A stretch of 56,751 nt of DNA from a virus (taxonomy: Duplodnaviria; Heunggongvirae; Uroviricota; Caudoviricetes): positions 1-56,751 of the IMG/VR virus record IMGVR_UViG_2778261162_000006; one strand, given 5' to 3'. Under the pieces are notes generated by a model, which made no database searches, had not been told where the DNA came from, and saw nothing but the letters and a program-made list of their open reading frames with translations. Shown in pieces: positions 1,459 to 56,751 of this stretch (its first letter is position 1; each line of letters starts with the position of its first letter). A program made the position numbers and the translations under genes.

Positions 1459-2622
1459 TTACACATCATTAGTACCTTCCTTATTTTTTGACTGGGACAA
1501 ATTTGGGACCGATGGGTTTAGGATCGAGTCTATTTGCCGTGCGTGTTCGGTAAGGTGATTAGGTGCAAGGTGAGCATATCGACGAACCATTTCGATAGAC
1601 TCCCAGCCTCCCATTTCCTGTAACACTGACAACGGGACTCCGGCTTGAACCAGCCAACTTGCCCAGGTGTGTCTCAAGTCGTGAAATCTGAAATCATCAA
1701 TACCAGCCCGTCTCAGCGCCGCTTTCCAGGCTGTGTTTGCGTCATACCGCATCTTCCTGACTGTTGGCGCTTTCGTTCCGTCTGGTTTGGTACAGCTTTC
1801 CTTGTACACAAATACCCAACGGTGATGATTCCCGATTTGTTTTTTCAATACGCGACATGCAGTATCATTCAGCGCAACGCCAATTGCGCGGTTTGATTTA
1901 CTCTCTTCCGGGTTTATCCATGCCACCCGGCGCTGCATATCTATTTGTTGCCATTCAAGGTTGATGATGTTCGAGCGTCTTAGGCCTGTTGCCAGTGCAA
2001 ATTCAACAACAGACTTTAATGGCTCCGGACATTCATCAATCAGCCTTTGTGCTTCATGGGGCTCCAGCCAGCGGATCCGTTTATTCTTTGGTTGAGGCAC
2101 TTTAATAATTGGTGCCTTATCCAGCATTTTCCATTCACGCTCTGCGGCTCTTAGTAGGGCCTTTATAAATGAAAGATGCGTAGCCTTCGTTGCAACGGAC
2201 GCTGGTTTTGGCGTGTATTCTGGAACAGGTTTCCCTTTTTTTCTGCATGCTTCTGCCCTGAGTTTCCAGTTTTCCTCATGACGCCGGTTCGTCATTTTCT
2301 GCATTGCTGAATAAATTTTTGATTCAGTAATGTCTCTTAGTTGCATTCCTGCGAAATGTTGAAGCCAGAATCCGATCCGGCTTTTGTCATCGTCCAGTGA
2401 TTTTTTATGTGCTTTCTCTTCAAGCCACCTGACACATGCTTCCTCGAACGTTATATCAGGTATTTCACCAAGTTTGCTGACCCGCCATGCTTCAGCCTTT
2501 AGCTTGTCATGGAGTTCTGTCGCCTGCCTTTTGTCCTTTGTTCCAAGAGACTGTTTAAATCTTTTACCGTTCGGCAATGTGAAACTGGCGTACCATATTT
2601 CACCTCTGCGGAAGAGTGACAT
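1459..2622 (-). CDS. Tyrosine-type phage integrase (Rac IntR-like)
   Basis: 387 aa; C-terminal HDLRHTWAS...RRYAH catalytic motifs; N-terminus [14 protein letters not shown] recalled from Rac-type integrases; adjacent to tRNA. Confidence 0.9.
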
Positions 2623-7735: not shown

Positions 7736-8299
7736 ATGAGGCTAACCGTGGGTAAGCATCACTGGAAAATAGAAAAACAGCCTGAGTGGTACGTGAAAGC
7801 TGTCAGAAAAACTATCGCGGCGTTGCCGGGTGGTTACGCTGAAGCGGCTGACTGGCTCGATGTAACAGAAAACGCTTTATTCAACCGCCTTCGTGCAGAT
7901 GGCGATCAGATTTTCCCGCTGGGATGGGCAATGGTTTTACAGCGTGCTGGTGGCACTCACTTCATTGCTGATGCTGTGGCGCAGTCTGCAAATGGCGTCT
8001 TTGTGTCTCTTCCTGACGTCGAGGATGTGGACAACGCCGATATCAACCAACGCCTGCTGGAAGTCATTGAACAGATCGGCAGTTATTCAAAACAGATTCG
8101 TTCAGCAATTGAAGACGGTGTAGTGGAACCGCATGAGAAGACAGCAATTAACGATGAGCTGTACCTCTCAATTTCGAAGCTGCAGGAGCATGCAGCACTG
8201 GTCTACAAAATCTTTTGCGTTTCAGAAAGTAGTGACGCCCGCGAGTGTGCAGCTCCGGGCGCCGTGGCGTGTCGTGACTGTGGAGAAACTAACGCATGA
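7736..8299 (+). CDS. CII-position regulator (YdaT-like), 187 aa
   Basis: Position immediately downstream of cro; family assignment by recollection only. Confidence 0.5.
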
Positions 8300-8634
8300 A
8301 CAGTTTAACAACACACTACCGTCGCTCGCAACTGATTGCGCTTCCTGTACCGGGTGGAAAAGCGAAGGTGGAGTATTGCTATGCAGTAAATGTACCAGGT
8401 GACAGGGAAATTGTAACCCACAGCTTTGCAGAGTGGGCTGTGGGTGATTTCAACCGGCAGAAGGAGACAGTCCTTTGCGACAAGTTAACCGCTGGTTCAA
8501 AGATCACTACGGAGTGCCCGTCAGAGTCATTCGTTGGGAGCCGGAAACACAACGGGTTATCTACCTCCGTGAAGGCTATGAGCATGAGTGCTTCAGCCCG
8601 CTCGAACAGTTTCGTCGTAAATTCAGGGAAATAG
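8296..8634 (+). CDS. Hypothetical protein (112 aa); C-terminal half may be out of frame
   Basis: ATGA overlap with upstream stop; a second frame (TTG at 8475 with AAGGAG SD, to 8654) encodes a more protein-like 59 aa. Confidence 0.45.
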
Positions 8635-17838: not shown

Positions 17839-18189
17839 ATGCCACCACGAATCCCAAAATCCTGCCGCGTTCGCGGCTGCCGCCATACCACTACTGACCC
17901 GTCAGGCTACTGCGAAAGCCACAAAAGCGAAGGCTGGAAGCAATACAAGCCAGGACAATCCCGTCATCAGCGCGGCTACGGTTCGAAATGGGATGCTATC
18001 CGTGAACGTGTACTGAAACGTGACAAAGGTTTATGTCAGTTATGTCTGCGTGCCGGTGTGGTGCGTGAAGCGAAAACCGTTGACCACATCATCCCTAAAG
18101 CGCATGGCGGCACTGATGCCGACTGTAATCTGCAGAGTCTGTGCTGGCCGTGTCATAAGGCGAAGACGGCCCGTGAACGGTTGAAGTGA
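17839..18189 (+). CDS. HNH endonuclease
   Basis: Cys pairs and DHIIPKAHGG...CHKAK motif; immediately upstream of terminase. Confidence 0.85.
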   Translation: MPPRIPKSCRVRGCRHTTTDPSGYCESHKSEGWKQYKPGQSRHQRGYGSKWDAIRERVLKRDKGLCQLCLRAGVVREAKTVDHIIPKAHGGTDADCNLQSLCWPCHKAKTARERLK

Positions 18190-18314
18190 TAATGATTCTC
18201 AACTTCCTGAGGGGAGGGGCGGGTCAAATCCCTGCGGCCTGACGTCTTCCGGACTGCCCGCCCCATCGTTTTTTTATACCCGCGAAAAATGAAATTTAAC
18301 CAGGAGTGCCGCAT

Positions 18315-18809
18315 ATGGCTGGAACGGCGGGGCGTTCCGGGCGTCGCCCCAAGCCAACGGCGCGCAAGGCGCTGGCCGGAAACCCCGGCAAGCGAGCCCT
18401 GAATAAAGATGAACCTGTTTTTACGCCCATCAAAGGTGTTGAGCCACCGGAGTGGTTCGCAGAAGAAGATCTCCCTCTCGCCACGATCATGTGGCAACTG
18501 ACAACCAAAGAACTCTGCGGTCAGGGCCTGCTGTGCGTGACTGACCTGGCGGTACTTGAGCGGTGGTGCGTGGCCTATGAGTTCTGGCGACGTGCCGTGA
18601 AAAATATTGCCAGACAGGGCAACACCATCACCGGTGCAATGGGCGGTATGGTCAAAAATCCTGAGCTGACCGCCAAAAAAGAACAGGAGTCCGAGATGAG
18701 CAGTACGGGGGCAATGCTCGGACTCGACCCCAGCAGCCGCCAGCGTCTGATTGGCCTGGCGGGGCAGAAGAAAGCCACTAACCCGTTTCTGAAAATTATC
18801 GAATCATGA
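18315..18809 (+). CDS. Terminase small subunit
   Basis: Position upstream of the large terminase; ATG after CAGGAG. Confidence 0.7.
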
Positions 18810-20539
18810 GCCGGAAATCTTACCCCAACGTAAATGCTGCCAATCAGTATGCCCGGGATGTCGTTCGCGGAAAGATTGTGGCCTGCCAGTTTGTGATTCA
18901 GGCCTGCCAGCGCCATCTTGATGACCTGATGGCGGAAAAAAGTAAGTCGTTTCGTTACCGCTTCGACAAGGACCTGGCTGAACGGGCCGCGAAATTTATT
19001 CAGCTGTTGCCGCACACCAAGGGGGAGTGGGCATTCAAACGGATGCCCATCACGCTGGAGCCGTGGCAGCTATTTGTGATCTGCTGTGCGTTTGGCTGGG
19101 TCAATAAAGGCACCCGGTTGCGCCGCTTCCGGGAGGTGTATACCGAAATTCCCCGTAAGAACGGCAAATCGGCAATCTCTGCCGGTGTTGCCCTGTATTG
19201 TTTTGCCTGTGATAACGAGTTTGGCGCGGAAGTGTATTCCGGTGCCACGACAGAGAAACAGGCATGGGAAGTCTTTCGTCCGGCACGATTGATGTGTAAA
19301 CGCACACCCATGCTGACGGAAGCGTTCGGGATTGAGGTTAACGCCTCAAACATGAACCGTCCGGAGGATGGTGCGCGGTTTGAACCGCTGATCGGTAACC
19401 CCGGTGATGGTTCATCACCCCACTGTGCCGTGGTGGATGAATATCACGAGCACGCCACCGATGCGCTTTATACCACGATGCTTACCGGGATGGGGGCGCG
19501 ACGTCAGCCACTGATGTGGGCCATTACCACCGCCGGGTACAACATTGAGGGGCCGTGCTACGACAAGCGGCGGGAAGTCATCGAGATGCTCAACGGCTCG
19601 GTGCCTAACGATGAACTGTTCGGGATCATCTATACCGTTGACGAAGGCGATGACTGGACCGACCCGCAGGTGCTGGAAAAAGCTAACCCGAATATTGGCG
19701 TGTCGGTTTATCGCGAATTTTTGTTAAGTCAGCAGCAGCGTGCGAAAAATAACGCCCGTCTGGCAAACGTCTTTAAAACAAAACACCTCAATATCTGGGT
19801 GTCGGCGCGTTCGGCGTATTTCAACCTGGTGAGCTGGCAGAGCTGCGAGGATAAATCACTGACCCTTGAGCAGTTCGAGGGGCAGCCGTGCATTCTGGCC
19901 TTTGACCTGGCGCGTAAACTAGATATGAACAGCATGGCGCGACTTTATACCCGCGAGATTGACGGTAAAACGCATTACTACAGTGTGGCCCCGCGTTTCT
20001 GGGTACCGTATGACACGGTGTACAGCGTCGAGAAAAATGAAGATCGACGGACAGCCGAACGCTTTCAGAAATGGGTGGAAATGGGCGTTCTGACCGTTAC
20101 CGATGGTGCGGAGGTGGATTATCGCTACATCCTCGAGGAGGCCAAAGCGGCGAACAAAATCAGCCCGGTCAGTGAGTCACCCATCGACCCTTTCGGGGCG
20201 ACCGGGTTGTCACATGACCTTGCTGATGAAGACCTGAACCCCATCACTATCATTCAGAACTACACCAACATGTCCGACCCGATGAAAGAGCTGGAAGCGG
20301 CAATTGAATCGGGGCGCTTTCATCATGATGGCAATCCCATCATGACCTGGTGTATCGGCAACGTGGTCGGCAAAACCATTCCGGGTAACGATGATGTGGT
20401 GAAGCCCGTCAAAGAGCAGGCGGAAAACAAAATCGATGGTGCAGTTGCGCTGATTATGGCGGTTGGCAGAGCCATGCTGTACGAGAAAGAAGACACGCTG
20501 TCTGACCACATTGAGTCCTATGGGATCCGCTCGCTTTAA
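18806..20539 (+). CDS. Terminase large subunit
   Basis: 577 aa; ATPase and nuclease segments; ATGA overlap with small subunit. Confidence 0.85.
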
Positions 20540-39530: not shown

Positions 39531-42284
39531 CTATTTGATTGCTGCATTGATTCGTTTATATCTTTGGGTAAAGGCCTCTTTGCCACCTTCCATCACTCGG
39601 CATATCTCATCGCGTATGGAAGGTTCTTGAAGACCCCCTTGCGCCACAATTCTGGTTTGACCAGACCGAATATCAAGGGCAATGACGTTTTCCGCGTCAC
39701 CATTCACGACGATGTTAGCGTTGTGCGTGACTACTAAAACCTGCCGTTTTTGTTTGATCTCACGCAATTGCGTCACGATAAGATCATAGATTAAGTGGTT
39801 ATCAAGATCATCCTCAGGCTGATCAAGTATAAGAGGCTCATTGCCATATGAAAGGATAAATGCAAGGAGAGCCGCCGTTTTTTGCCCCGGAGATCCTTGC
39901 TCTACGGGTTTGAAACTCTCGCCGTTCTTGAGGCTATATCTGATATCCAGAGAATCGCCTGGAAACCAGCACTGAATTCGATCTATCTGTTCCGGAGTTA
40001 GCCCCTGAATGAGGGATACAAAACGTCGATCTTTGCAGGATTCCACCGCCATAGTATCGTTTTCATGGATTGCAAGTAGCGATGATTTTATTTTCTCAAT
40101 TTTATCATCCATAGTATTGGATTGGTCTTGCGTTAAATAAGCCAGCAAGCCCTCATCCCCGTCAACAACTCCAATGTCGCGGTCAAATCCGCCACCACTG
40201 CGGCCGATCAGGTTACGGAATTCTTCCTCAACCGTAATCTTGTTTCCAAACGGAATGACATTGATCTGTACATATGAATTGCCGACGAGAGTATCCTTGA
40301 GAAAGTCCTCACGAAGTTTGGTTATCAATGCTCGATGCTCATGGAGTTTGACCAAGTATTCTTCCGCGCTCTTCTGATGCTGCGCAAGAGTTTCTCTCTT
40401 TTTGTCGAATCCCTTGAGCTTATCTTCGAAATCTTGTCGCTGCTTAACCAGAACACCATATGCAGATGGATCACCTGCGTCTGCTGCGCTGAGTTGACCG
40501 AGGAGGGCGTTGTATTCATGGCTCGCCGCTGTAATTCTTTTCGATATTCCCAAGTCTGATCGAGTTTGATTCCATGAGTTCTTCACATCATCAATCCGCT
40601 GCGCGATCGAGTTCATCTCTGTCTGAAGCTTCTCAAACGTCGCACGGATGTCCTTGATGGTATCGAAGAGTTCTTTGTCATCCGCATTCCCAATGTCGAA
40701 ATATTGTAAATCCAATTCTGCTGGCAGTAGGCTTCCAGAAATATCTCGGACCTGTTCGGCGGAATCCTCCCAAGTCGTTACCCAGGAGTCCATAGCCTTA
40801 CTCTGGTTCTGTCTGAGTTGGTAAGCCTTAAGGACATCCGCGTGGCCCGCCTTTTCAAAAACATCGAGTTTGCGTTTGACGTCTTCAAGCTGACCTTTGG
40901 TTACCGATTCTTCCTGAAGCCCAGCCTGAACTTCACGCTCTTGGGCGCGAAGCGAGAGATATTTGGAAACCAGTTCATCCCACTTAAGCTGCCAATCACG
41001 ATGATTGACCTCCGGGGCATCATCGACAACCTGCAAGAGTGCTTGGGGATGCTTTGCCAATTCGAATATCTGTTTCTGGCTGTAAATCCTGACAGGAAAT
41101 CGTTGTGCTATGTCTCCCTCGGAATCACACCAGACTCCGGGAGCGGTCTCTTCCTCGATGCTGTATATGTCGTCGGTATTAGACCAGGTGATTCGGAAAC
41201 GGCCACCGTCTTTTCGAAAGCCTACAGTTATTTTCGTGGAATCTTTTAACAGCCCTTCATCTTGGCGGTCTTTCGAAGTTTGACTGTATTTGGTAAATTC
41301 CTTTTCAAGGCTCTTGGGGATTTCTCCCTTTCGTTTAAGAGCAATCCGCAGGAATTCCAACGAAGTCGATTTCCCAGTGCCTCGTCCACCAATGATAGTG
41401 TTGAGCCAGGGGTTCAGTTGACAAGTTAAAGATTGCCCTCGTCCTAAGTACTTCGCATCATCAACCACGATACTTTCGATGGCAAGTTGTCCATGGATAT
41501 TTGGGTCACCAGTGAAGTTGTCCGACCGCTTCAGTGAAAGAGCCCCATCAACGAGCGCCAGCCGTAATCCGTCATAAGATGGCTCCGACATTTTTACCCA
41601 AGTGAAATGGCTACCCGGGTAGCGTTGATTTCCGGTACCGGACGGATGATGGGAATCGGTTCCAAGAATCTCTGCCCAATTCAAATTCTTGCCAATATAG
41701 AGCTGCGGTTTTGCTTTAGCAAGGTCCGTTACCTCCATAGCAAAAACACATTTGTTGTCAAGCACCTGCTCTAGTGTGTTGCCCGTACAGACCGTAAAAA
41801 GTCCGCTAGCCTGATCTACATGAGCAGGTATTGCAAGTCCTCCTGACCTAGCAATTTCGTCGATCACCTCAACTGCTGAGCATTCAGAGCAGCCGTCGCT
41901 CTTTCCTTTGGTGCCGCGATACCTGACCGCACCAAGCAGTGAGTCGATATCAGAGGTTGTCTTGTCTTCGCCGAAAATGGCCAGAATATGGATATTCCCC
42001 TGAACAGTAAGCTCAACACCTGGGAATAAGTAGAGTGGTCGATAATCTTCATGACTCTCAGATGCCAGTTCCTTGAGTGCCTGCTTGAGCGGATCAATCC
42101 AAGCGCCTGAATTATGGTCCGTGACAGCGACACAATCGATGCCTTGTCGCATGTAGTTGAGCAGCCAATCTTTATGAGTGATCTGCATATACTGGGCCTG
42201 ATTAGGGCCTTTTCCATAATCGTCCGATGCCGGAGTGTGATTATGGAAGTCGAATTTCCACCACCGAGAACCAATCCAGTTCAT
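39531..42284 (-). CDS. PHP phosphoesterase fused to SMC/Rad50-like ABC ATPase with coiled-coil (Ppl-like defence protein candidate)
   Basis: N-terminal FDFHNHTPASDDYG, VAVTDHN, IPAHV, GTDSHH PHP motifs; Walker A GGRGTGKST; signature-like SPGQKTAALLA; Walker B LILDQPEDDLD; H-loop VLVVTHN; long E/K/Q-rich insert between Walker A and B. Confidence 0.75.
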   Translation of the reverse strand: MNWIGSRWWKFDFHNHTPASDDYGKGPNQAQYMQITHKDWLLNYMRQGIDCVAVTDHNSGAWIDPLKQALKELASESHEDYRPLYLFPGVELTVQGNIHILAIFGEDKTTSDIDSLLGAVRYRGTKGKSDGCSECSAVEVIDEIARSGGLAIPAHVDQASGLFTVCTGNTLEQVLDNKCVFAMEVTDLAKAKPQLYIGKNLNWAEILGTDSHHPSGTGNQRYPGSHFTWVKMSEPSYDGLRLALVDGALSLKRSDNFTGDPNIHGQLAIESIVVDDAKYLGRGQSLTCQLNPWLNTIIGGRGTGKSTSLEFLRIALKRKGEIPKSLEKEFTKYSQTSKDRQDEGLLKDSTKITVGFRKDGGRFRITWSNTDDIYSIEEETAPGVWCDSEGDIAQRFPVRIYSQKQIFELAKHPQALLQVVDDAPEVNHRDWQLKWDELVSKYLSLRAQEREVQAGLQEESVTKGQLEDVKRKLDVFEKAGHADVLKAYQLRQNQSKAMDSWVTTWEDSAEQVRDISGSLLPAELDLQYFDIGNADDKELFDTIKDIRATFEKLQTEMNSIAQRIDDVKNSWNQTRSDLGISKRITAASHEYNALLGQLSAADAGDPSAYGVLVKQRQDFEDKLKGFDKKRETLAQHQKSAEEYLVKLHEHRALITKLREDFLKDTLVGNSYVQINVIPFGNKITVEEEFRNLIGRSGGGFDRDIGVVDGDEGLLAYLTQDQSNTMDDKIEKIKSSLLAIHENDTMAVESCKDRRFVSLIQGLTPEQIDRIQCWFPGDSLDIRYSLKNGESFKPVEQGSPGQKTAALLAFILSYGNEPLILDQPEDDLDNHLIYDLIVTQLREIKQKRQVLVVTHNANIVVNGDAENVIALDIRSGQTRIVAQGGLQEPSIRDEICRVMEGGKEAFTQRYKRINAAIK

Positions 42285-42646: not shown

Positions 42647-42694
42647 ATTCGTAATGCGAAGGTCGTAGGTTCGACTCCTATTATCGGCACCATT
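42647..42694 (+). repeat. attR core (copy of tRNA-Thr 3' end); also the tRNA-proximal att of the downstream satellite
   Basis: Identical 48 bp to 1399..1446. Confidence 0.85.
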
Positions 42695-42858: not shown

Positions 42859-44073
42859 GTGAAACTCAATGCCCGTCAAATAGACACTGCCAAGCCAAAA
42901 GAGAAGGCTTACAAGCTGGCTGATGGTGGTGGTCTGTATCTCTTGGTAAAACCTAGTGGAGGAAAATATTGGCGCTTCAAGTATCGTGTAGCTGGTAAAG
43001 AGAAGCTGTTAGCACTAGGTGTGTATCCTGAAGTTACCTTGGCTGATGCTCGTGCAAAACGTGAAGAAGCTAAAAGGGGTATCGCTGGGGGTATCGATCC
43101 GATGGAAGCGAAACGAGAGGAAAAGATTGCCCGGGAAACGCAGTTAAACAACACCTTCAAAGATATTGCCCTTGAGTGGCACAGCAGCAAATTAAAAAAA
43201 TGGTCTGCTGGTTATGCTTCAGACATCCTCGAAGCCTTTAACAAAGATGTGTTCCCTTACATTGGCAAAAAACCAATCGCCGAAATCAAACCACTTGAAC
43301 TGCTGAATGTGCTGCGGCGCATCGAGGGGCGCGGTGCTACCGAAAAAGCCAAAAAAGTGAGGCAGCGATGTGGGGAAGTTTTCCGCTATGCAATTGTCAC
43401 TGGACGTGCTGAGTATAACCCTGCACCGGATCTCACCAGCGCGATGCAAGGTCATGAATCTAATCATTATCCTTTCCTCACAGCCAAAGAATTACCTGAT
43501 TTTTTCAAGGCATTGTCCAGTTACTCAGGAAGTGCATTGGTTGTTATGGCGGCTCGTTTACTGATTATCACCGGTTTGCGGACTGGCGAACTGCGCGGTG
43601 CATTATGGGATGAAATCGATCTCAACAAGGCTATCTGGGAGATACCTGCTTCACGGATGAAAATGCGTCGCCCTCATGTAGTGCCTTTGTCTGAGCAGGC
43701 TCTTTCGCTTATTGGGCAGATTAAAGAACTAACTGGCAATTATCCGCTTATGTTTCCCGGCCGTAATGATCCAAGGAAAACAATGAGCGAGGCTAGCATA
43801 AACCAAGTATTTAAACGCATCGGCTATAACGGAAAGGTTACTGGTCATGGCTTCCGGCACACTATGAGCACCATTTTGCATGAGCAGGGCTATAACACCG
43901 CGTGGATAGAGACACAGCTTGCGCACGTCGATAAAAACTCAATTCGTGGCACATACAACCATGCGCAATATCTGGATGGGCGGCGGGAAATGCTTCAGTG
44001 GTACGCTGATTATATGGATTCGCTCGAGCATGGCGGAAATGTGGTGCATGGTGAGTTCGGAAAATGCGGGTGA
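42859..44073 (+). CDS. P4-type tyrosine integrase
   Basis: 404 aa; GTG start after GGAGG; GHGFRHT and catalytic Tyr region; N-terminal arm-binding domain. Confidence 0.9.
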   Translation: MKLNARQIDTAKPKEKAYKLADGGGLYLLVKPSGGKYWRFKYRVAGKEKLLALGVYPEVTLADARAKREEAKRGIAGGIDPMEAKREEKIARETQLNNTFKDIALEWHSSKLKKWSAGYASDILEAFNKDVFPYIGKKPIAEIKPLELLNVLRRIEGRGATEKAKKVRQRCGEVFRYAIVTGRAEYNPAPDLTSAMQGHESNHYPFLTAKELPDFFKALSSYSGSALVVMAARLLIITGLRTGELRGALWDEIDLNKAIWEIPASRMKMRRPHVVPLSEQALSLIGQIKELTGNYPLMFPGRNDPRKTMSEASINQVFKRIGYNGKVTGHGFRHTMSTILHEQGYNTAWIETQLAHVDKNSIRGTYNHAQYLDGRREMLQWYADYMDSLEHGGNVVHGEFGKCG

Positions 44074-44201
44074 CTGGTTGAGTATACAGTAGTAGACTTT
44101 GAGCGACGAAAGAAAAGGCTGTGTCTAGGGTCGCTCCCGAAAATCCGTACACCTCGACGGACTGGTACAGCCACTACAGTAGAGGACGCTGAGGTGTGCG
44201 T

Positions 44202-48825: not shown

Positions 48826-49116
48826 ATGAAAAAGAAAAATTCTGGCTTTACTGCCAGCGGCCTCTCTCGGCCTGAAATCCGCCCCGGTGATATTTTCCGG
48901 GACACCAGACGCGGGGGACGGGTGGTTATTCGTCACGTTATGCCAGGCAATATCACCTACCGCCGTGAGGCTTACGAATATGACTGCGTAATGCCGCGCC
49001 GTCAGTTTGAGCGTGATTTTATTCTGGTTGAAAACAAACAACAGGCGGTGGCGAGACGTGCAGCCACGAATATTAAAAAAATCCGGGCAATGTTGGTTGC
49101 GGGAGGTAAGAAGTGA
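48826..49116 (+). CDS. Hypothetical basic protein (96 aa)
   Basis: ORF upstream of primase. Confidence 0.5.
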   Translation: MKKKNSGFTASGLSRPEIRPGDIFRDTRRGGRVVIRHVMPGNITYRREAYEYDCVMPRRQFERDFILVENKQQAVARRAATNIKKIRAMLVAGGKK

Positions 49117-50885
49117 AAAACGCACCGAATTTAAAATATCAGCCGAAGGATAAATTCACCGAGGTAATCATTTTTGCCGGGACGGACGCTTACTCCCATG
49201 CTCAACACTGGATTGAAAGCGAAGGACGAAAACACGGCGATAACGTACCACCTGTTTACCTGGGGCCAAAGCAACTGGCAGACCTGGTGAATATCCGCAT
49301 TGTCGACGATGAACGCCGCTTTGCGCGTGTCTATCTCGCGGGGGAGATCGAACCAATCCAGATCAATGCTATCGCTGAAAAACTGGCGCTGGCTGGCGTA
49401 CAGGAGGCGAAATTATACAAAGGCATCACCGACCGGGAACCGGAGAACTGGCGCGATTACCTGCAACGGATCCGCGAACAGGCAGAGCGCGGGGATATTC
49501 TGTCAGGAAGGACTGAGAAAAAACACAAAATCTCTCTTTCCAGAATGGCGGATAACGAGCGAGCTTCACTTTTGGCTGAATGCTTTGAGGAAATAGCTGT
49601 TCACCCTGGTAACAATTTTGCTTATGCATACTGTTCTGGAGTGTGGGAAAAAATATCTGATATGGAGTTGAGTCGTAAAATGGTATCAATTTACGAAAAA
49701 AACAAGACAAATTTCAGTAAGCGGGCAATTAGTAATGCGGTTGATGCTTTAAAAATATCTGTACCCGTAATGAGAGAACAGAGTGACACCATAATACCTT
49801 TTGAAAATGGAGTTTATGACATAACAAGTGGTAGATTTTTACCTCATTCACCAGAGCACTGGATCACTTCGCATAATGGAATTTATTATACGCCACCTGC
49901 GCCTGGTGAAAATATTCATGACCATGCGCCCCATTTTCATCGTTGGCTGTCACATGCAGCAGGATACGATTCATCAAAGATGAAGCGGATATGTGCTGCT
50001 CTGTTTATGGTTTTGGCTAATCGCTACGACTGGCAATTATTCATTGAAGCAACTGGCGAAGGTGGAAGTGGTAAAAGTATGTTTACTCAAATTGCCAGAA
50101 TGTTGGCGGGTGAGCAGAACACCGCAGGCAGTGATATGAAAGCGTTAGATGATGCTGGTGGACGTGAGCAACTAGTTGGTAAAAGTCTGATTATTTTACC
50201 GGACCAACCTAAATATTTTGGTGAAGGTAATGGTATTAAAGCTATAACAGGTGGGGATCCTCTGCAAATCAACCCGAAATATGAAAAAAGATACACCACT
50301 GTCTTACGCTCAGTTGTTTTGATAACAAATAATAAACCGATGGTTTTTACAGAAAGAGCGGGAGGTATTTCACGCCGTAGGGTTATTTTTCAGTTCAATA
50401 ATCCGATAGCGGAAGAAAACAAGGACACATGTTTACCCAAAAAAATTGCAGCGGAAATTCCGGTAATAGTCCGTAGGCTGTTGGTAAATTTTTCAGATCC
50501 CGAAAAAGCAAGAACATTACTGCTCGAACAACGTGATGGTGAAGAAGCAATGGAAGTAAAACGCCATACTGATCCGCTATATGCTTTTTGTAACCATATT
50601 GTCGAACTTGGTGAAGCTGTAGGAATGTTCATGGGAAACCTGAATATATATCCAAGAGCCCCTCGAATTTATCTTTACCATGCATATCTTGCATATATGG
50701 ATGCTTATGGTTTCGATAAGCCATTAAATCTAACTAATTTTGGCAAAGATTTCCCAAAAGTGATGAAAGAATATGGGGCTGAGTATAAGAAGGCAAAGAC
50801 CAATGTCGGAATGCGCTACAACATGGAGCTGGCTGACAGTGCTAATGAATGGTTACCCGCTGTGCCAAAAATCCATGAAAAGTGA
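49113..50885 (+). CDS. P4 alpha-like primase/helicase
   Basis: 590 aa; GTG start after GGGAGGT; Walker A EATGEGGSGKSM; followed by iteron-rich origin. Confidence 0.75.
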   Translation: MKNAPNLKYQPKDKFTEVIIFAGTDAYSHAQHWIESEGRKHGDNVPPVYLGPKQLADLVNIRIVDDERRFARVYLAGEIEPIQINAIAEKLALAGVQEAKLYKGITDREPENWRDYLQRIREQAERGDILSGRTEKKHKISLSRMADNERASLLAECFEEIAVHPGNNFAYAYCSGVWEKISDMELSRKMVSIYEKNKTNFSKRAISNAVDALKISVPVMREQSDTIIPFENGVYDITSGRFLPHSPEHWITSHNGIYYTPPAPGENIHDHAPHFHRWLSHAAGYDSSKMKRICAALFMVLANRYDWQLFIEATGEGGSGKSMFTQIARMLAGEQNTAGSDMKALDDAGGREQLVGKSLIILPDQPKYFGEGNGIKAITGGDPLQINPKYEKRYTTVLRSVVLITNNKPMVFTERAGGISRRRVIFQFNNPIAEENKDTCLPKKIAAEIPVIVRRLLVNFSDPEKARTLLLEQRDGEEAMEVKRHTDPLYAFCNHIVELGEAVGMFMGNLNIYPRAPRIYLYHAYLAYMDAYGFDKPLNLTNFGKDFPKVMKEYGAEYKKAKTNVGMRYNMELADSANEWLPAVPKIHEK

Positions 50886-51165
50886 ACAGTGGTGAACAGT
50901 GGTGAACAGTAGTGTTCACCTCTAAAAGCTGCGTCATTACTGGATTCATCGACGAAATGAACGCCGTGAACAGTTTCGGCTAAAACTTTTAAAACGCATT
51001 GTAACTTGTAACAGTGAATCATTTTCACTGCAAATTAAATTCTATAGGGGGTAACTGTTCAACTGTTCACTGAAACAAAATAACCATATGATTTTAAACT
51101 AAAAAACATAGTGAACAGTTATTAAAAAACTGTTCACTAACTATTCACGACTGTTCACAATCAAA
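50881..51165. repeat. Origin-like iteron cluster (P4 ori/crr-like)
   Basis: GTGAACAGT x3 tandem, GTGTTCACC, and many further TGAACAGT/ACTGTTCA copies. Confidence 0.7.
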
Positions 51166-51233
51166 ATGGAATAGTGTGAATAATTGGAATTTTTATCACG
51201 AAATTATAGAAATAGAGTTGCAAAGGGGGGGGT

Positions 51234-52388: not shown

Positions 52389-52802
52389 CGGAGGCCGGGA
52401 TTTTTCCCGGCTTTTTTGTGCCAGTAAAAAGCCCGCAGCCAGAAGTGTTGCGGGCTTTGTTTTTCAGGTGATTGAAGTCAATGGGAAGAACGCGATCATC
52501 ATGCGTTATCGTTTCATAAATTGCAATGATGTAGATCGTCATTTCAGTTTATGCAATCATAACCATTGTTTTGTTCAGGAGATATGACTATGAGAAAAGC
52601 CAGCGTGAAACCCGTTTTACTCGCTCGTGATCAGATTGAAGCATTACAGCGCATCCAGGACGAGGAACGCCGCAATTCTCCGCTGGGGATTGCTCCGAGC
52701 ATTCATGAGGTCGCCCGGCGTTTAATGCAGCGGGCGCTTTATCCCGTAGAACGTCCGGCCTGATGGTCGTGATTTTTTGGTGAAAAAAGAGAGGTGGTAA
52801 AA

Positions 52803-53381
52803 ATGCCAGCAAGCAAAGAAGATTTGCGATTAAAACTGATGGAGGTGGTTAACGCTCTGTCAGAGTCGCAGGGAAGCACTCCGCAGGAGATTATCGAAAT
52901 TCTGAATGCGATCCCCGCACAGGATTTCATAAAAGAGGATAACGCGAATCAAAACATCGTCGCGTCAGTCGAAGATGAATCCTCACTGGCAGAAGCCCAG
53001 GCTAAAGCGGATTCCGCATACAGCAATATGGGCCGTCGCGCTCCGGCCCCGTTTGCTGGTGAAAAGTCGATGGATTACCGCAAACGTGCATTAATTGGCG
53101 CACAGAAGCTGGCTAAAAAATTCAGTGATGTGGATATTCGTTCCGTTTCAGATTCTGCAACGCTGGCGGTGCTGGAAGATCAGATTTACAAGGCTGCTCA
53201 GGAAAGTGCTCAGTGGGCCGTGGAAAACACGCCGGGCCATTTGGGTAAAACCGTAAGAATGGATGAAGCCGGTCGTCGTATTACTGAATATCAAGGAGAT
53301 CCGAACGTCTGGCTGAACGCCTTCAAAATCCCTCCCCGTCGCCTGGTCAAAATTAACGTTGCAAGCCTCGCGGGGGCATGA
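52803..53381 (+). CDS. Hypothetical protein (possible capsid-remodelling/late protein)
   Basis: ATG after GAGGTGG; position in distal late-like region. Confidence 0.5.
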   Translation: MPASKEDLRLKLMEVVNALSESQGSTPQEIIEILNAIPAQDFIKEDNANQNIVASVEDESSLAEAQAKADSAYSNMGRRAPAPFAGEKSMDYRKRALIGAQKLAKKFSDVDIRSVSDSATLAVLEDQIYKAAQESAQWAVENTPGHLGKTVRMDEAGRRITEYQGDPNVWLNAFKIPPRRLVKINVASLAGA

Positions 53382-53445: not shown

Positions 53446-54117
53446 ATGCTTTTAACAGAAATTGAGGCGGCGAAGCAGGTTCGGGACGGACAGCTACCGT
53501 CGCCTTATCAGTTTTCCAACATGTGGCTGGTTAACCTGCGTATCACAGGAACCGGAATGGCCTACCGCGCCGAAGAAAAAGAATTTGTCTGGCGTTCACC
53601 GCAAACTTATCTCAATCCGCAGTTCCTGGAACGTTGCGCCGGAGTACCCGTCATTATCGACCATCCCGAAAGCAAAACCCTTGAAGACGTGGGCGAACGG
53701 TCGCGCATTATTGGCACCGTCATGTTGCCGTATATTCGCGGTGACGAGGTGTGGGGCGTATGCCGGATTTACGGGCAGGAAATCATCGATTACATCCAGA
53801 AAGCACGGGGGGAGGTATCCACCAGCCCGTCGGTTGTGTTTTGTGGTGCGTCCGGTGGGGCTGAAGTTCCTGATGTAATGGGCGAGGACAATTTTTTTAT
53901 TGAGGGTACGCCATTTCTTATCGATCACGTTGCGCTCGTGCCGCTTGGTGTTTGGGATAAGGGCGGGAAACCATCGGGCGTGGAAGTAACAACGCCGACA
54001 GCAGAAGAACAGCTTGCCGGAATGGTCCGGGACGTTATTGATGCGGCCTGCAAGCCAGCCCTGGAAAAACTGGAAGAAATATCCGGGCGGCTGGCTCAAC
54101 TGGAAAAAGAAGGGTGA
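53446..54117 (+). CDS. Hypothetical protein (223 aa)
   Basis: ORF. Confidence 0.5.
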   Translation: MLLTEIEAAKQVRDGQLPSPYQFSNMWLVNLRITGTGMAYRAEEKEFVWRSPQTYLNPQFLERCAGVPVIIDHPESKTLEDVGERSRIIGTVMLPYIRGDEVWGVCRIYGQEIIDYIQKARGEVSTSPSVVFCGASGGAEVPDVMGEDNFFIEGTPFLIDHVALVPLGVWDKGGKPSGVEVTTPTAEEQLAGMVRDVIDAACKPALEKLEEISGRLAQLEKEG

Positions 54118-54123
54118 GTCATA

Positions 54124-54651
54124 ATGCTGATGAGTAAGGCAGAATATGCCAAACACAAAGGCGTAAGCCGCCAGACAGTTTACGACTGGATCGATAAAGG
54201 CGAAGTGGTCATGTCCGGTAAAAAAATCGATGTGGAAGCGACAGAGCAGCGGAACAGCCCACCTGCACAGGGAAAAGACACAGTTTCTGAAATGTGGCCA
54301 GAGAGAACGCTGGAAATGACGTGGGGCGAGTTCTGGAAAGCAGTTAAGGCCAGAGGCGGTAAAATTCCTGCGCCAGCAACGGACGAGGGCATACAGCAGC
54401 GTGTGCTGGATGCAGCCGGGGAATTAGGCTGGGAAGTGCACTTTCTTGATGATGGTGCTATCTGCCTTGAGGATTGCGACGGGCAGCATTACTTTGAACA
54501 ATACAATTTGCGAGGTAATGCCAGGCTGGCAATTCGTATGCTGCGTTGCGAACTCTGCTATGTTGCAGGTGATTATCCCGATGAACTGGAATCATGGAGT
54601 GAAGCCGGGCTAAACGCCCTGGCTGAATGGGAAAAATCAGACCATCAATGA
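54124..54651 (+). CDS. HTH DNA-binding protein
   Basis: N-terminal SKAEYAKHKGVSRQTVYDWIDKGEV helix-turn-helix. Confidence 0.55.
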   Translation: MLMSKAEYAKHKGVSRQTVYDWIDKGEVVMSGKKIDVEATEQRNSPPAQGKDTVSEMWPERTLEMTWGEFWKAVKARGGKIPAPATDEGIQQRVLDAAGELGWEVHFLDDGAICLEDCDGQHYFEQYNLRGNARLAIRMLRCELCYVAGDYPDELESWSEAGLNALAEWEKSDHQ

Positions 54652-54655
54652 CATC

Positions 54656-54870
54656 AAAAAGTGTCAAGTTGAGCAGCTTGCCAGGTTGACACTTTACACT
54701 CTGAACGCGAAAAAGTGTCAACCTCGCTGTAAGCCCCGCCATTACTGGGTTTGTGCCAGATTTACCACGTCAAAAAGCCGAAAAAATCGCGAAAAGTGTC
54801 AAGTTGCTATGCTTAGAAATGCTAAGGTTTGATAAGGTTTTTCGCGAAAAAGTGTCAAGTGTGTCAACCG
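54656..54870. repeat. Array of AAAAGTGTCAA repeats with inverted TTGACACTT partner
   Basis: At least four direct copies at ~50-80 bp spacing and one perfect 10-bp inverted pair separated by 20 bp. Confidence 0.7.
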
Positions 54871-55143
54871 CGCCGCTTTAGAAAACTTTATGTGCAGATC
54901 GTTGGATGCATCTGTCAAAACTTGCCACCCACCAGCACCGCCAGCGGGGATTTTTGGCTACACGCGCTCTAAGTAACAGTTGCTTCAGTGCGTTACATAC
55001 GTTGGAAGTGTTATAACTCAAGTTTTTGAGACAAAGTCAGAATTGTATGAATTTGTCTATAGCCGTCTACTCAAGTTTTCTACATAATATAAGGAAATAG
55101 CATGTTGTTTAATTAATGTACGATAATTCTGAAAGAGTAACAT

Positions 55144-55971
55144 ATGATAAACTTAGATATGGATGTTGTGGTTGGACATGGGCAGAACGATTTTGAAGAA
55201 TTAGAAATGAATTCCGGCATAAAGGTTTTTGCTGGAGCTTCTGACATCACCCAAATTACAACAAGCACTATTTTAGATGATTCAGTCCCCAAAAAATCAA
55301 CCTCTATACATGGGCTTAGGAATATGTTCAAACATACATTTGATGGATCGTTTGGACAAAATTTTGAACTTAGAATTGATGATCCTGAAAAGATAAAAAG
55401 ATTTAATGAAATTGGCAGGGGTGTTTTTTTTGATGTTATGTCATATTACATCTCTAAAGGAATGGGAATAGCTCACCATCTTAAGAGCCAGAAAGCAATC
55501 GACTTAGTAGAGCGTCTTAAACCGCTTGAAAAACAACTTTTGATAAGAATTCAGGAACCTATACAGAATTTACATAAAACAGTTGAGAAACAAAAATATA
55601 ATGTACTTCTGAGAAGAAGAACACCAACTAAAAAATTAGTTGTTGCTAAAATGGATACGCAGACGCTCTTCAATATCAATGTAGAGCATGAATCTGCTCA
55701 ACCAGTAGAAGAAAATGTTATTATAACTAGGTTTAATATGTTAACAGGAACTGGTCGATTGTTATTAGATAGACAGTCAGATTCAATTGCCTTTAGACAC
55801 CATCTTAATTGGGAACATGTATTGCAGTCTCAGAAAAATAAGTTTTCAAGGAATCTTGATAGGAATAACAGAGGTGGTAAAGACGCTTTTATACCTATAA
55901 CCATTTCTGCTTATGAGTTGCGCGATCATATTGGAGAGCTAAAGGCTTATATAATTAGAGAAATATTGTAA
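55144..55971 (+). CDS. Hypothetical protein A (275 aa), first gene of AT-rich cargo operon
   Basis: ATG; strongly AT-rich; no recognised motifs. Confidence 0.65.
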   Translation: MINLDMDVVVGHGQNDFEELEMNSGIKVFAGASDITQITTSTILDDSVPKKSTSIHGLRNMFKHTFDGSFGQNFELRIDDPEKIKRFNEIGRGVFFDVMSYYISKGMGIAHHLKSQKAIDLVERLKPLEKQLLIRIQEPIQNLHKTVEKQKYNVLLRRRTPTKKLVVAKMDTQTLFNINVEHESAQPVEENVIITRFNMLTGTGRLLLDRQSDSIAFRHHLNWEHVLQSQKNKFSRNLDRNNRGGKDAFIPITISAYELRDHIGELKAYIIREIL

Positions 55972-56751
55972 ATGAAGATGCCCTCAATCAAAGTTATTTC
56001 ACTTATATTAATAGCTATTGTATGGTATTTTTACTTTTCTCATTTCAATCATTGGGATAGCCCGTTAGATATCTTTAATGCTAGCAAATGGATGGGTTTT
56101 TCCAATGATAAAGGTGATTGGGGCACTTTCGGGGATTTTGTAGGAGGTGTGCTTAATCCTATCTTGACCTTCATTACAATTGTTATGCTCATTAATTCCT
56201 TGAAACTTCAACGAGAAGCAAACGAGCAACTAATTAAAGACGAAAGAAGACAAGAGAAAGACGTTCTTCTAAAACGGTTTGAAGACGGTTTTTATAACCT
56301 TATCTCTTCAGAAAGAGAGGAGTTTAGTTGTTTTACTATTAACATTAACGGAAAAGAATACCGCTCATCTGCTGCTGTTAGTGAATTGGAAGAGGCAATA
56401 TGGGCTTTTATTGAGAAACAAATAGATGAAAAAGGAGCTTGCGAAATTGAGGATGTTAAAAATTACATAAATAAAATTGATGAGGATTCATCTATGGCAA
56501 TATTTTCCATGGTGCGATGTGTATATGTTGTTTTTAAGGTTGTTAAGGATAAATGCCCTGAAGAACATCAAGATTACTACTTAGATATTTTTATGAATAT
56601 GTTACCAGTTAAACTGGTAAATTTAGTTGCTATTGTGTCTGTGTATATGGACTGGAAAAACGTAAAATATATTATTGATGGTGGAAAAGGATTTTCGGAT
56701 AATGAAGCAGTTAAAGAATATATTAATACTTGGAAGGAGTTTCATGAATAA
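55972..56751 (+). CDS. Hypothetical membrane protein B (259 aa, two N-terminal TM helices)
   Basis: ATG immediately after the stop of gene A; hydrophobic helices VISLILIAIVWYFYF and FVGGVLNPILTFITIVMLI; a further ATG begins 11 nt before window end. Confidence 0.65.
   Translation: MKMPSIKVISLILIAIVWYFYFSHFNHWDSPLDIFNASKWMGFSNDKGDWGTFGDFVGGVLNPILTFITIVMLINSLKLQREANEQLIKDERRQEKDVLLKRFEDGFYNLISSEREEFSCFTININGKEYRSSAAVSELEEAIWAFIEKQIDEKGACEIEDVKNYINKIDEDSSMAIFSMVRCVYVVFKVVKDKCPEEHQDYYLDIFMNMLPVKLVNLVAIVSVYMDWKNVKYIIDGGKGFSDNEAVKEYINTWKEFHE

Follow-up and report, generated by a model that had tools for sequence, protein, structure and literature searches.

What is the function of the short repeats that occupy positions 54656 to 54870 of the viral record IMGVR_UViG_2778261162_000006, at the boundary between the core genes of a phage satellite and its accessory cargo? 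The window analysed here, the whole 56,751-nucleotide stretch of that record, holds two mobile elements side by side along its 56.7 kb, a prophage and then a satellite of the phage-inducible chromosomal island (PICI) type. The repeat array belongs to the satellite and lies directly 3' of a gene for a protein of 175 amino acids (aa). An earlier note on this DNA had placed the array between the last late-like gene and an AT-rich cargo operon, a location that is correct, and had proposed either activator-dependent late promoter elements or a cis packaging or regulatory site that may control the cargo. Comparison with related elements gives good support to the view that the neighbouring 175-aa protein has its target in cis in this array. 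As to what the two do together, we favour, with moderate confidence, a packaging-specificity module of the satellite in which the array would be a recognition site of the pac or cosB kind.

The repetition far exceeds chance. The sequence AAAGTGTCAA occurs exactly five times, on the plus strand at 54658, 54712, 54793 and 54849 and on the minus strand at 54686, all within 201 bp (54658-54858). Its expectation in the whole window is 0.18 copies, and none of 100 dinucleotide-preserving shuffles yielded five. The 11-mer AAAAGTGTCAA is present four times (54657, 54711, 54792 and 54848), which bears out the claim of at least four direct copies. Two additional degenerate boxes, TTTACAC at 54693 on the minus strand and GTGTCAA at 54861 (GTGTGTCAACC), complete the set, and the repeat unit exceeds 10 bp, with a consensus of approximately cgCGAAAAAGTGT[C/A]AA[c/g][c/t]. 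Boxes thus defined stand in both orientations. A 10-bp perfect inverted pair had been described at 54658-54667 and 54686-54695; the pair is real, and its spacer measures 18 bp, not 20. The conserved inverted pair is formed by TTGACACTTT (54686) and AAAGTGTCAA (54712), separated by 16 nt, and its 16-nt arms are 94% complementary. This divergent dyad, with 29-30 bp from start to start (minus/plus), recurs in relatives with only 40% protein identity. Downstream of it, direct boxes follow in a recurring architecture at roughly 54, 71-81 and 52-56 bp, and double boxes offset by 7 or 9 bp are common (here 54686/54693 and 54852/54861).

The array is firmly linked to the gene upstream of it. A set of 91 loci, 73 of them distinct, was drawn from E. 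coli and GTDB genomes, assemblies and IMG/VR (L numbers below denote loci), and we counted boxes by the core GTGT[C/A]AA on either strand. All 73 distinct loci carry this core within 400 bp past the stop codon of the gene, in one to nine copies (three to nine in most). Past the stop, the first three bins hold 2.8, 1.1 and 1.4 boxes per 100 bp. No bin between 1.5 kb and 200 bp upstream exceeds 0.03 per 100 bp, and nearly all bins more than 400 bp downstream stay within the same limit. The linkage was seen in Escherichia, Pantoea, Klebsiella and Enterobacter, where the sequence between boxes cannot be aligned across genera and the box takes the form GTGTAAA in genera other than Escherichia. Within the E. 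coli lineage, 82% of the box columns are invariant, compared with 51% of the spacer columns and 54% of those in the last 150 bp of the gene. Full-length elements showed no boxes upstream of the gene or at any other place, which makes the array the only evident target of the protein.

Of 5,426 complete E. coli genomes, 182 contain elements that bear the array, with relatives in Klebsiella, Enterobacter, Pantoea and Serratia. Protein and array are kept irrespective of the late genes upstream, which are head-protease-like here and baseplate-hub-like or a lytic transglycosylase elsewhere, and of which almost none exist in E. coli 83972. Neither the array DNA nor the full-length protein matched any of 50,697 phage records. 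In the searchable literature, neither the array nor the protein family is described, and a search with the box sequence returned nothing relevant.

The 175-aa protein consists of parts with very different histories of conservation. In an AlphaFold2 (AF2) model (mean predicted local distance difference test, pLDDT, 88), residues 1-44 form a winged helix-turn-helix, residues 45-56 a disordered linker and residues 61-170 an alpha/beta domain. The family is small, unnamed and confined to Enterobacterales, with 113 clusters at 90% identity. Over 38 homologues whose overall identity drops to 34%, the first ~42 residues, with the recognition region VSRQTVY.W among them, are near-invariant; the remainder of the protein falls to ~35% identity. 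A near-invariant recognition region fits a DNA target with an invariant GTGT core, and the boxes are probably bound by this domain.

Sequence comparisons place the N-terminal domain closest to small terminase subunits (TerS). Pfam gave only a sub-threshold HTH_17 match. The best PHROG for residues 1-42 was phrog_57, 'terminase small subunit' (E=1.5e-7), and tblastn of the same residues against the 50,697 phage records ranked by E-value the TerS of Serratia phage BZS1 (2e-4) and Citrobacter phage phiNP (2e-3) at the top, with Pseudomonas TerS genes among the next matches. When the family profile was aligned with hhalign, BZS1 TerS, itself a member of phrog_57 (1.2e-27), matched over 40 columns from residue 1 (96.8%, E=3e-10); the same profile gave 1.4e-3 for lambda Nu1, 0.035 for lambda Xis and 0.21 for the AlpA of the satellite. 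The C-terminal domain, on the other hand, found no fold match by Foldseek in PDB or BFVD, and among 1.84 billion cluster representatives only 18 contained it, essentially all from its own family or fragments thereof. A PDB sequence search with protein and profile matched no chain. On these comparisons, the protein combines a terminase-type DNA-binding domain with a new, family-specific domain, and is not a small terminase: it has the DNA-binding domain of a Nu1-type TerS, without recognisable oligomerisation or TerL-binding regions and without a neighbouring gene for the large terminase subunit (TerL).

That a conserved cis element is tied to an adjacent protein with a TerS-type DNA-binding domain lends support to the second option of the earlier note, a cis packaging or regulatory site. 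A packaging role in particular is favoured by the phage relatives of this domain. In BZS1, terS begins 62 bp past a 12-nt cohesive end given in the annotation, and the gene after it encodes a large terminase resembling gpA. The interval from cosN to the start codon of terS contains three GGTAACA repeats in BZS1 and in phiNP alike. The reverse complement of this repeat, TGTTACC, resembles the GTGT[C/A]AACC of the satellite. The clade of DNA-binding domains to which the protein belongs therefore adjoins short repeated boxes in a packaging site. The GGTAACA sequence appears another four to five times inside the terS genes of BZS1 and phiNP, mostly at 12-nt spacing, where it encodes a Gly-Asn-rich repeat, and the terminase-binding array of these phages may extend into terS. 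Both sets of copies taken together, the repeats lie at L097 48-73 and 246-303 and at L098 2474-2499 and 2675-2732.

Furthermore, the satellites are without TerS and TerL, and no lambda-, P2/P4- or BZS1-type cos was found near the array in the window or in any of the 90+ loci. An 11-mer cos match in L013 and L041 was rejected, as it showed no flanking similarity. These elements thus have no other recognisable packaging signal, which favours a packaging role for the module, as does its retention whatever the late genes upstream. In the capsid-forming PICI LR881103, a terS-terL pair occupies the position of protein and array, and the array is absent, which points the same way. So do the precedent of the Rpp proteins of other PICIs (PMC6739421, PMC9026076) and the cargo just downstream, which recalls the accessory genes reported downstream of SaPI (Staphylococcus aureus pathogenicity island) pac sites (PMC12829572), the more so as blocks of array and cargo are exchanged between elements. 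The packaging role itself, and with it the partner proteins, the direction and the mode of packaging (cos or headful), we infer from these comparisons.

Under this packaging reading, induction by a helper phage would lead to production of the protein from the rightward operon of the satellite. Several copies would then bind the 12-18-bp boxes (single, double and one divergent dyad) over ~210 bp, probably aided in bending the DNA by A-tracts and a second conserved motif within the array. The resulting nucleoprotein complex could tag satellite concatemers as substrate for the helper terminase, either through direct recruitment of the helper large terminase or, in the manner of Rpp, through association with the helper small terminase, and packaging would start beside the variable cargo hotspot.

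A number of points weigh against this reading. Similarity to TerS stops at about residue 43, and no coiled-coil oligomerisation or TerL-binding region was seen beyond it. Foldseek searches of PDB and BFVD with the N-terminal domain gave Xis and BldC as top matches, with weak E-values, and some excisionases and regulators with repeat arrays as targets belong to the winged-helix class as well. Among the box spacings of 7, 9, 22, 30, 46, 54-56 and 81 bp are some that do not correspond to full turns of the helix. In lambda-like phages and the known Rpp-encoding PICIs, cosB is on the 5' side of terS or rpp (PMC9026076), unlike the array, which is on the 3' side of its gene. Finally, no candidate cosN conserved beside the array was found.

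With the boxes beside the gene and no cosN of lambda, P2 or BZS1 type, another type of cosN or headful cutting is possible. Relatives of BZS1 TerS, sought as pointers to helper phages, were limited to three phage records, none from E. coli. The box motif was absent near the terminase genes of Rac-SA53 and PdC23, phages that share the DUF2213 domain with the satellite. These two carry Terminase_2 and T4-like terminases, both typical of headful packaging. Helpers of the headful type would explain the missing conserved cosN.

Comparison with well-characterised systems shows both the kinship and the distance. Lambda-type cosB/Nu1 systems, including the TerS of BZS1 and phiNP, have a DNA-binding domain homologous to that of the satellite protein and, like the satellite, present several short boxes, direct and inverted, over 100-200 bp beside the gene. 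The satellite array differs in being larger (6-9 boxes), in its box sequence, in lacking a detectable cosN or cosQ, and in having no terL after the gene. A hallmark of the Rpp proteins of PICIs is that they associate with the helper TerS and block packaging of the helper. They mimic the DNA-binding domain of TerS and redirect packaging to a PICI-specific cosB (PMC6739421). Like the satellite protein, the Rpp of EcCICFT073-type PICIs is satellite-encoded, carries a TerS-like winged helix and comes from PICIs of Gram-negative hosts, and each is thought to supply a satellite-specific DNA target for packaging. The known Rpp-encoding PICIs, however, have a lambda-like cosQ-cosN upstream of rpp and no repeated R sequences (PMC9026076), an arrangement not found in the satellite or its full-length relatives, and the C-terminal part of Rpp is helical (PMC9026076), whereas that of the satellite protein is modelled as alpha/beta. 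RppC has been crystallised (PMC6739421) and would be expected among the PDB chains, to none of which the satellite protein showed homology.

The TerS-SP/pac pairs of SaPIs resemble the satellite in bringing their own DNA-recognition component for packaging; the SaPI TerS is a full TerS homologue (PMC6092414), unlike the satellite protein, which is terminase-like in its DNA-binding domain only. In its multi-box layout the array also resembles the pac sites of two phages, although the proteins are unrelated. More specifically, P1 pac and SPP1 pac contain several copies of short boxes over ~160-270 bp of bent DNA. As a whole, the module parallels the Rpp and TerS systems without belonging to either.

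If the packaging reading is right, the protein-array pair would represent a third solution beside SaPI TerS and Rpp, and it offers a testable candidate for the packaging of terminase-less, cos-less satellites. We put forward a stronger version more tentatively, as possible and well short of probable: a novel packaging hijack in which a chimeric protein, joining a terminase DNA-binding domain to an effector, acts on its own multi-box site to recruit the helper machinery, with neither cos mimicry nor a full TerS, and in which packaging before excision drives the exchange of defence cassettes. Because the array borders the cargo hotspot, packaging from it before excision would then exchange such cassettes between satellites, as in lateral transduction.

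The DNA beyond the array is of a different character. Homology among elements ends at the last box, most E. coli matches reach only 54869, and the cargo cassettes further on differ completely among elements; a variable cargo hotspot begins after the last box. It can be likened to the defence hotspots described for other satellites, and the protein-array pair provides a practical marker of its left edge and a possible handle for transducible vectors. In many elements, the first gene past the array is a conserved open reading frame (ORF) of 59-62 aa (phrog_7271), which also ends the capsid-forming PICI, and its ribosome-binding site and ATG directly adjoin the last box in many relatives. It is absent from the part of the satellite covered by the window, where a segment common to a distant lineage with a 163-aa protein follows instead. 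A terminator-like hairpin with a T-run (54925-54957) is degenerate in the window (-5.5 kcal/mol) and reaches -13 to -14 kcal/mol in relatives; a strong hairpin of this kind separates the array from the cargo in a deletion remnant, L095, and in several relatives that belong to the 163-aa lineage.

The cargo of the window is a two-gene cassette, also found in L001, L039 and L043, whose second protein has a predicted N-terminal membrane segment. The two proteins match only the unannotated PHROGs 13337 and 8999; searches of PADLOC, NCBIfam and Pfam gave nothing significant, with one weak PADLOC match. The cassette may be an undescribed defence or exclusion system. Between the window and E. coli strain 51688, the DNA is 100% identical from ~54620 through the start of the cargo, whereas the proteins are only 82% identical, which indicates that array and cargo were swapped as a block.

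These surroundings bear on the alternative that the protein acts as a transcription factor with the array as its operator or insulator, controlling the small terminal ORF and the cargo by repression, activation or insulation. In a variant, the complex might block read-through from the rightward operon, or the spread of silencing from the AT-rich cargo. We regard this alternative as rather unlikely, even though regulators of the MerR, Xis, Cox and BldC types, which bind repeat arrays, belong to the winged-helix class, the array is always at the boundary of core and cargo and often abuts the translation start of the small ORF, and a sole target in the element would make for local regulation. The DNA-binding domain is, however, closest to TerS and not to regulators, and an operator would not usually have its sites scattered across 210-300 bp at intervals of 46-81 bp. 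The absence of boxes upstream of the gene itself speaks against autoregulation. The same module precedes unrelated cassettes, each with upstream DNA of its own, and persists in elements that lack the small ORF; the capsid-forming PICI has that small ORF and no array. No promoter-like hexamers were found in the array, and the terminator-like hairpin already parts array from cargo in some relatives. The suggestion that the array controls the cargo operon is not sustained for much the same reasons: the array is conserved whatever lies downstream, and homology stops at the last box.

Quite improbable, in our judgement, is a site for replication or maintenance bound by the adjacent protein, such as a second origin, an enhancer like crr of P4, a fork barrier or a centromere. 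Direct-repeat arrays bound by a neighbouring product are typical of iteron origins and centromeres, and P4 does possess a second cis replication region, crr (PMC6092414). The iteron origins of PICIs and P4 resemble the array in that the repeats adjoin the gene of their binder, but the satellite has a separate, classical iteron origin after its primase gene (50873-51170), built from a different repeat, so the array is not the origin. In P4, crr carries the same iterons as ori, which counts against a crr-like array with boxes of its own. The array is moreover 3.8 kb from the primase gene and not AT-rich (GC 0.47), no ParA/ParB-like gene was found, and PICIs reportedly lack a plasmid state (PMC6092414).

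The late promoter elements first proposed, which would depend on a helper activator and drive the cargo operon, fare still worse, and we consider them very improbable. The array does lie upstream of the cargo and after late-like genes, and each plus-strand box holds TTGACA on the minus strand. With the exception of B2 (54686), these hexamers point away from the cargo, none has a usable -10 hexamer at 16-18 bp, and in other genera the box reads GTGTAAA. Neither a promoter-like hexamer pair nor a terminator was found within 54650-54870, where the boxes stand in both orientations. The array is conserved independently of the cargo, with downstream gene and distance varying freely and, in some relatives, the hairpin intervening; its linkage is to the upstream gene and to nothing downstream. 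Scarcely credible, finally, is an Xis-like protein bending DNA at excision sites in the attR arm: excisionase families including Xis are among the weak matches of the N-terminal domain and the array is at the int-distal end of the element, as is the P arm in lambda, but even in the smallest elements the 180-bp ORF, at the minimum, and additional sequence part it from attR (in most elements, kilobases of cargo), and in L006 arm-like repeats start ~240 bp past the last box. An AlpA-type gene and an int-alpA RNA of the satellite itself are moreover present beside int, and hhalign favours TerS over Xis and AlpA.

Apart from the boxes, the array contains further elements, whose positions are given with those of the other features in Table 1. 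Natural E. coli relatives (L017, L019, L020 and L022) carry one to five tandem copies of the 8-bp unit GCTTGCCA, a variable-number repeat that moves the first box in 8-bp steps; the B1-B2 spacing is therefore unconstrained. Three A-tracts, judged by their phasing, would be expected to confer an intrinsic bend. Copies related to the second conserved motif occur between boxes in 39 of the 91 loci, nearly all 100-300 bp past the end of the gene, and palindromes comparable to the 14-bp one, with T-tract, CGCG and A-tract, are present in relatives. The array gave no Rfam match and a fold z-score of -1.3; together with the two box orientations, this argues that it acts as double-stranded DNA. Arrays can be mosaics of lineages, as in L095.

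Table 1. Positions of the array components, the neighbouring genes and other features of the window.
Feature	Position	Strand	Remarks
Prophage integrase	1459-2622		
Prophage HNH/TerS/TerL	17839-20539		
Satellite P4-type integrase	42859-44073		
int-alpA RNA	44118-44185	+	just 3' of satellite int; Rfam RF02996, 45.5 bits against a gathering score of 35.8
Satellite D5-type primase	49113-50885		
Iteron origin	50873-51170		directly 3' of primase gene; at least 10 GTGAACAG-type repeats (alternative reading CTGTTCAC) in two sets around an AT-rich stretch
Two late-like satellite genes	52794-53381 and 53446-54117		related to phage head protease/scaffold (DUF2213, phrog_6216)
175-aa gene	54124-54651	+	ORF
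Box B1, AAAAGTGTCAAGT	54657-54669	+	left arm of the inverted pair described earlier
8-bp unit GCTTGCCA	54676-54683		in the B1-B2 spacer
Box B2 (TTGACACTTT at 54686-54695) overlapping degenerate B2' (TTTACAC, 54693-54699)	54684-54699	-	double box, 7 bp apart
Box B3 with CGCGAAAAA leader	54706-54723	+	forms the divergent dyad with B2
Three A-tracts (A5, A6, A4)	54771-54795		starts 9 and 11 bp apart; run into B4
Box B4, TCGCGAAAAGTGTCAAGT	54787-54804	+	
Second conserved motif, CTTAGAAATGCTAAGG	54812-54827		
Perfect 14-bp palindrome, TTTTTCGCGAAAAA	54838-54851		touches box B5
Boxes B5 (AAAGTGTCAA at 54849) and B6 (GTGTGTCAACC, 54859-54869)	54843-54869	+	double box, 9 bp apart
Post-array segment	54870-54990	+	common to the distant 163-aa lineage
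AT-rich two-gene cargo (~33% GC)	55144-56751	+	275 aa; at least 259 aa, running off the window

Some relatives show the gene and array in unusual settings. In the Klebsiella loci L007 and L008, the gene (8001-8516) is directly upstream of myovirus late genes, and a major-capsid fragment and tail genes lie past the right end of the satellite; these look like helper-embedded satellites. The protein P0076, in which AntA is joined to the C-terminal domain, was considered as a case of Bro-N domain shuffling and rejected, as it is a satellite deletion remnant: at L095/L096 (10001-11240), int-AlpA-AntA' is fused to the 3' part of the 175-aa gene, with the array and a SIR2-type cargo intact. By its sequence, P0103 looks like a similar remnant, in this case a fusion with an integrase gene. 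Deletion fusions of this type could be mistaken for domain-shuffled regulators.

The satellite has the features by which PICIs are recognised (PMC6092414), namely int, AlpA, a primase with an iteron ori, unidirectional genes and an incomplete set of virion genes. Its AlpA-type gene is next to int, and a gene for an AntA-domain protein lies between the int-alpA RNA and the primase gene. The layout of the origin agrees with published origins of Gram-negative PICIs, and genes for ProQ/FinO and PerC lie downstream of it. The two late-like genes correspond to phrog_6216 (545 positions) in swapped order, 52794-53381 matching positions 409-544 and 53446-54117 positions 115-328 (DUF2213), whereas the homologues in Rac-SA53 and PdC23 are one single gene each.

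The first element of the window is a prophage of ~41 kb inserted at tRNA-Thr, which also encodes an HK97-type capsid and a contractile-tail sheath. An exact 48-bp direct repeat (1399-1446 and 42647-42694), equal to the 3' end of tRNA-Thr(CGT), is present at both positions and shows that prophage and satellite stand in tandem at one tRNA site, the satellite starting immediately after the second copy. PICI attachment sites have been said never to be used by prophages (PMC6092414). When satellite and resident prophage were compared, this att repeat was the only sequence common to both. Immediately ahead of attR, where the prophage ends on the right, the minus strand (39531-42284) encodes a 917-aa ATPase with AAA_21, SMC-like and AAA_15 matches, which looks like a prophage-borne defence gene.

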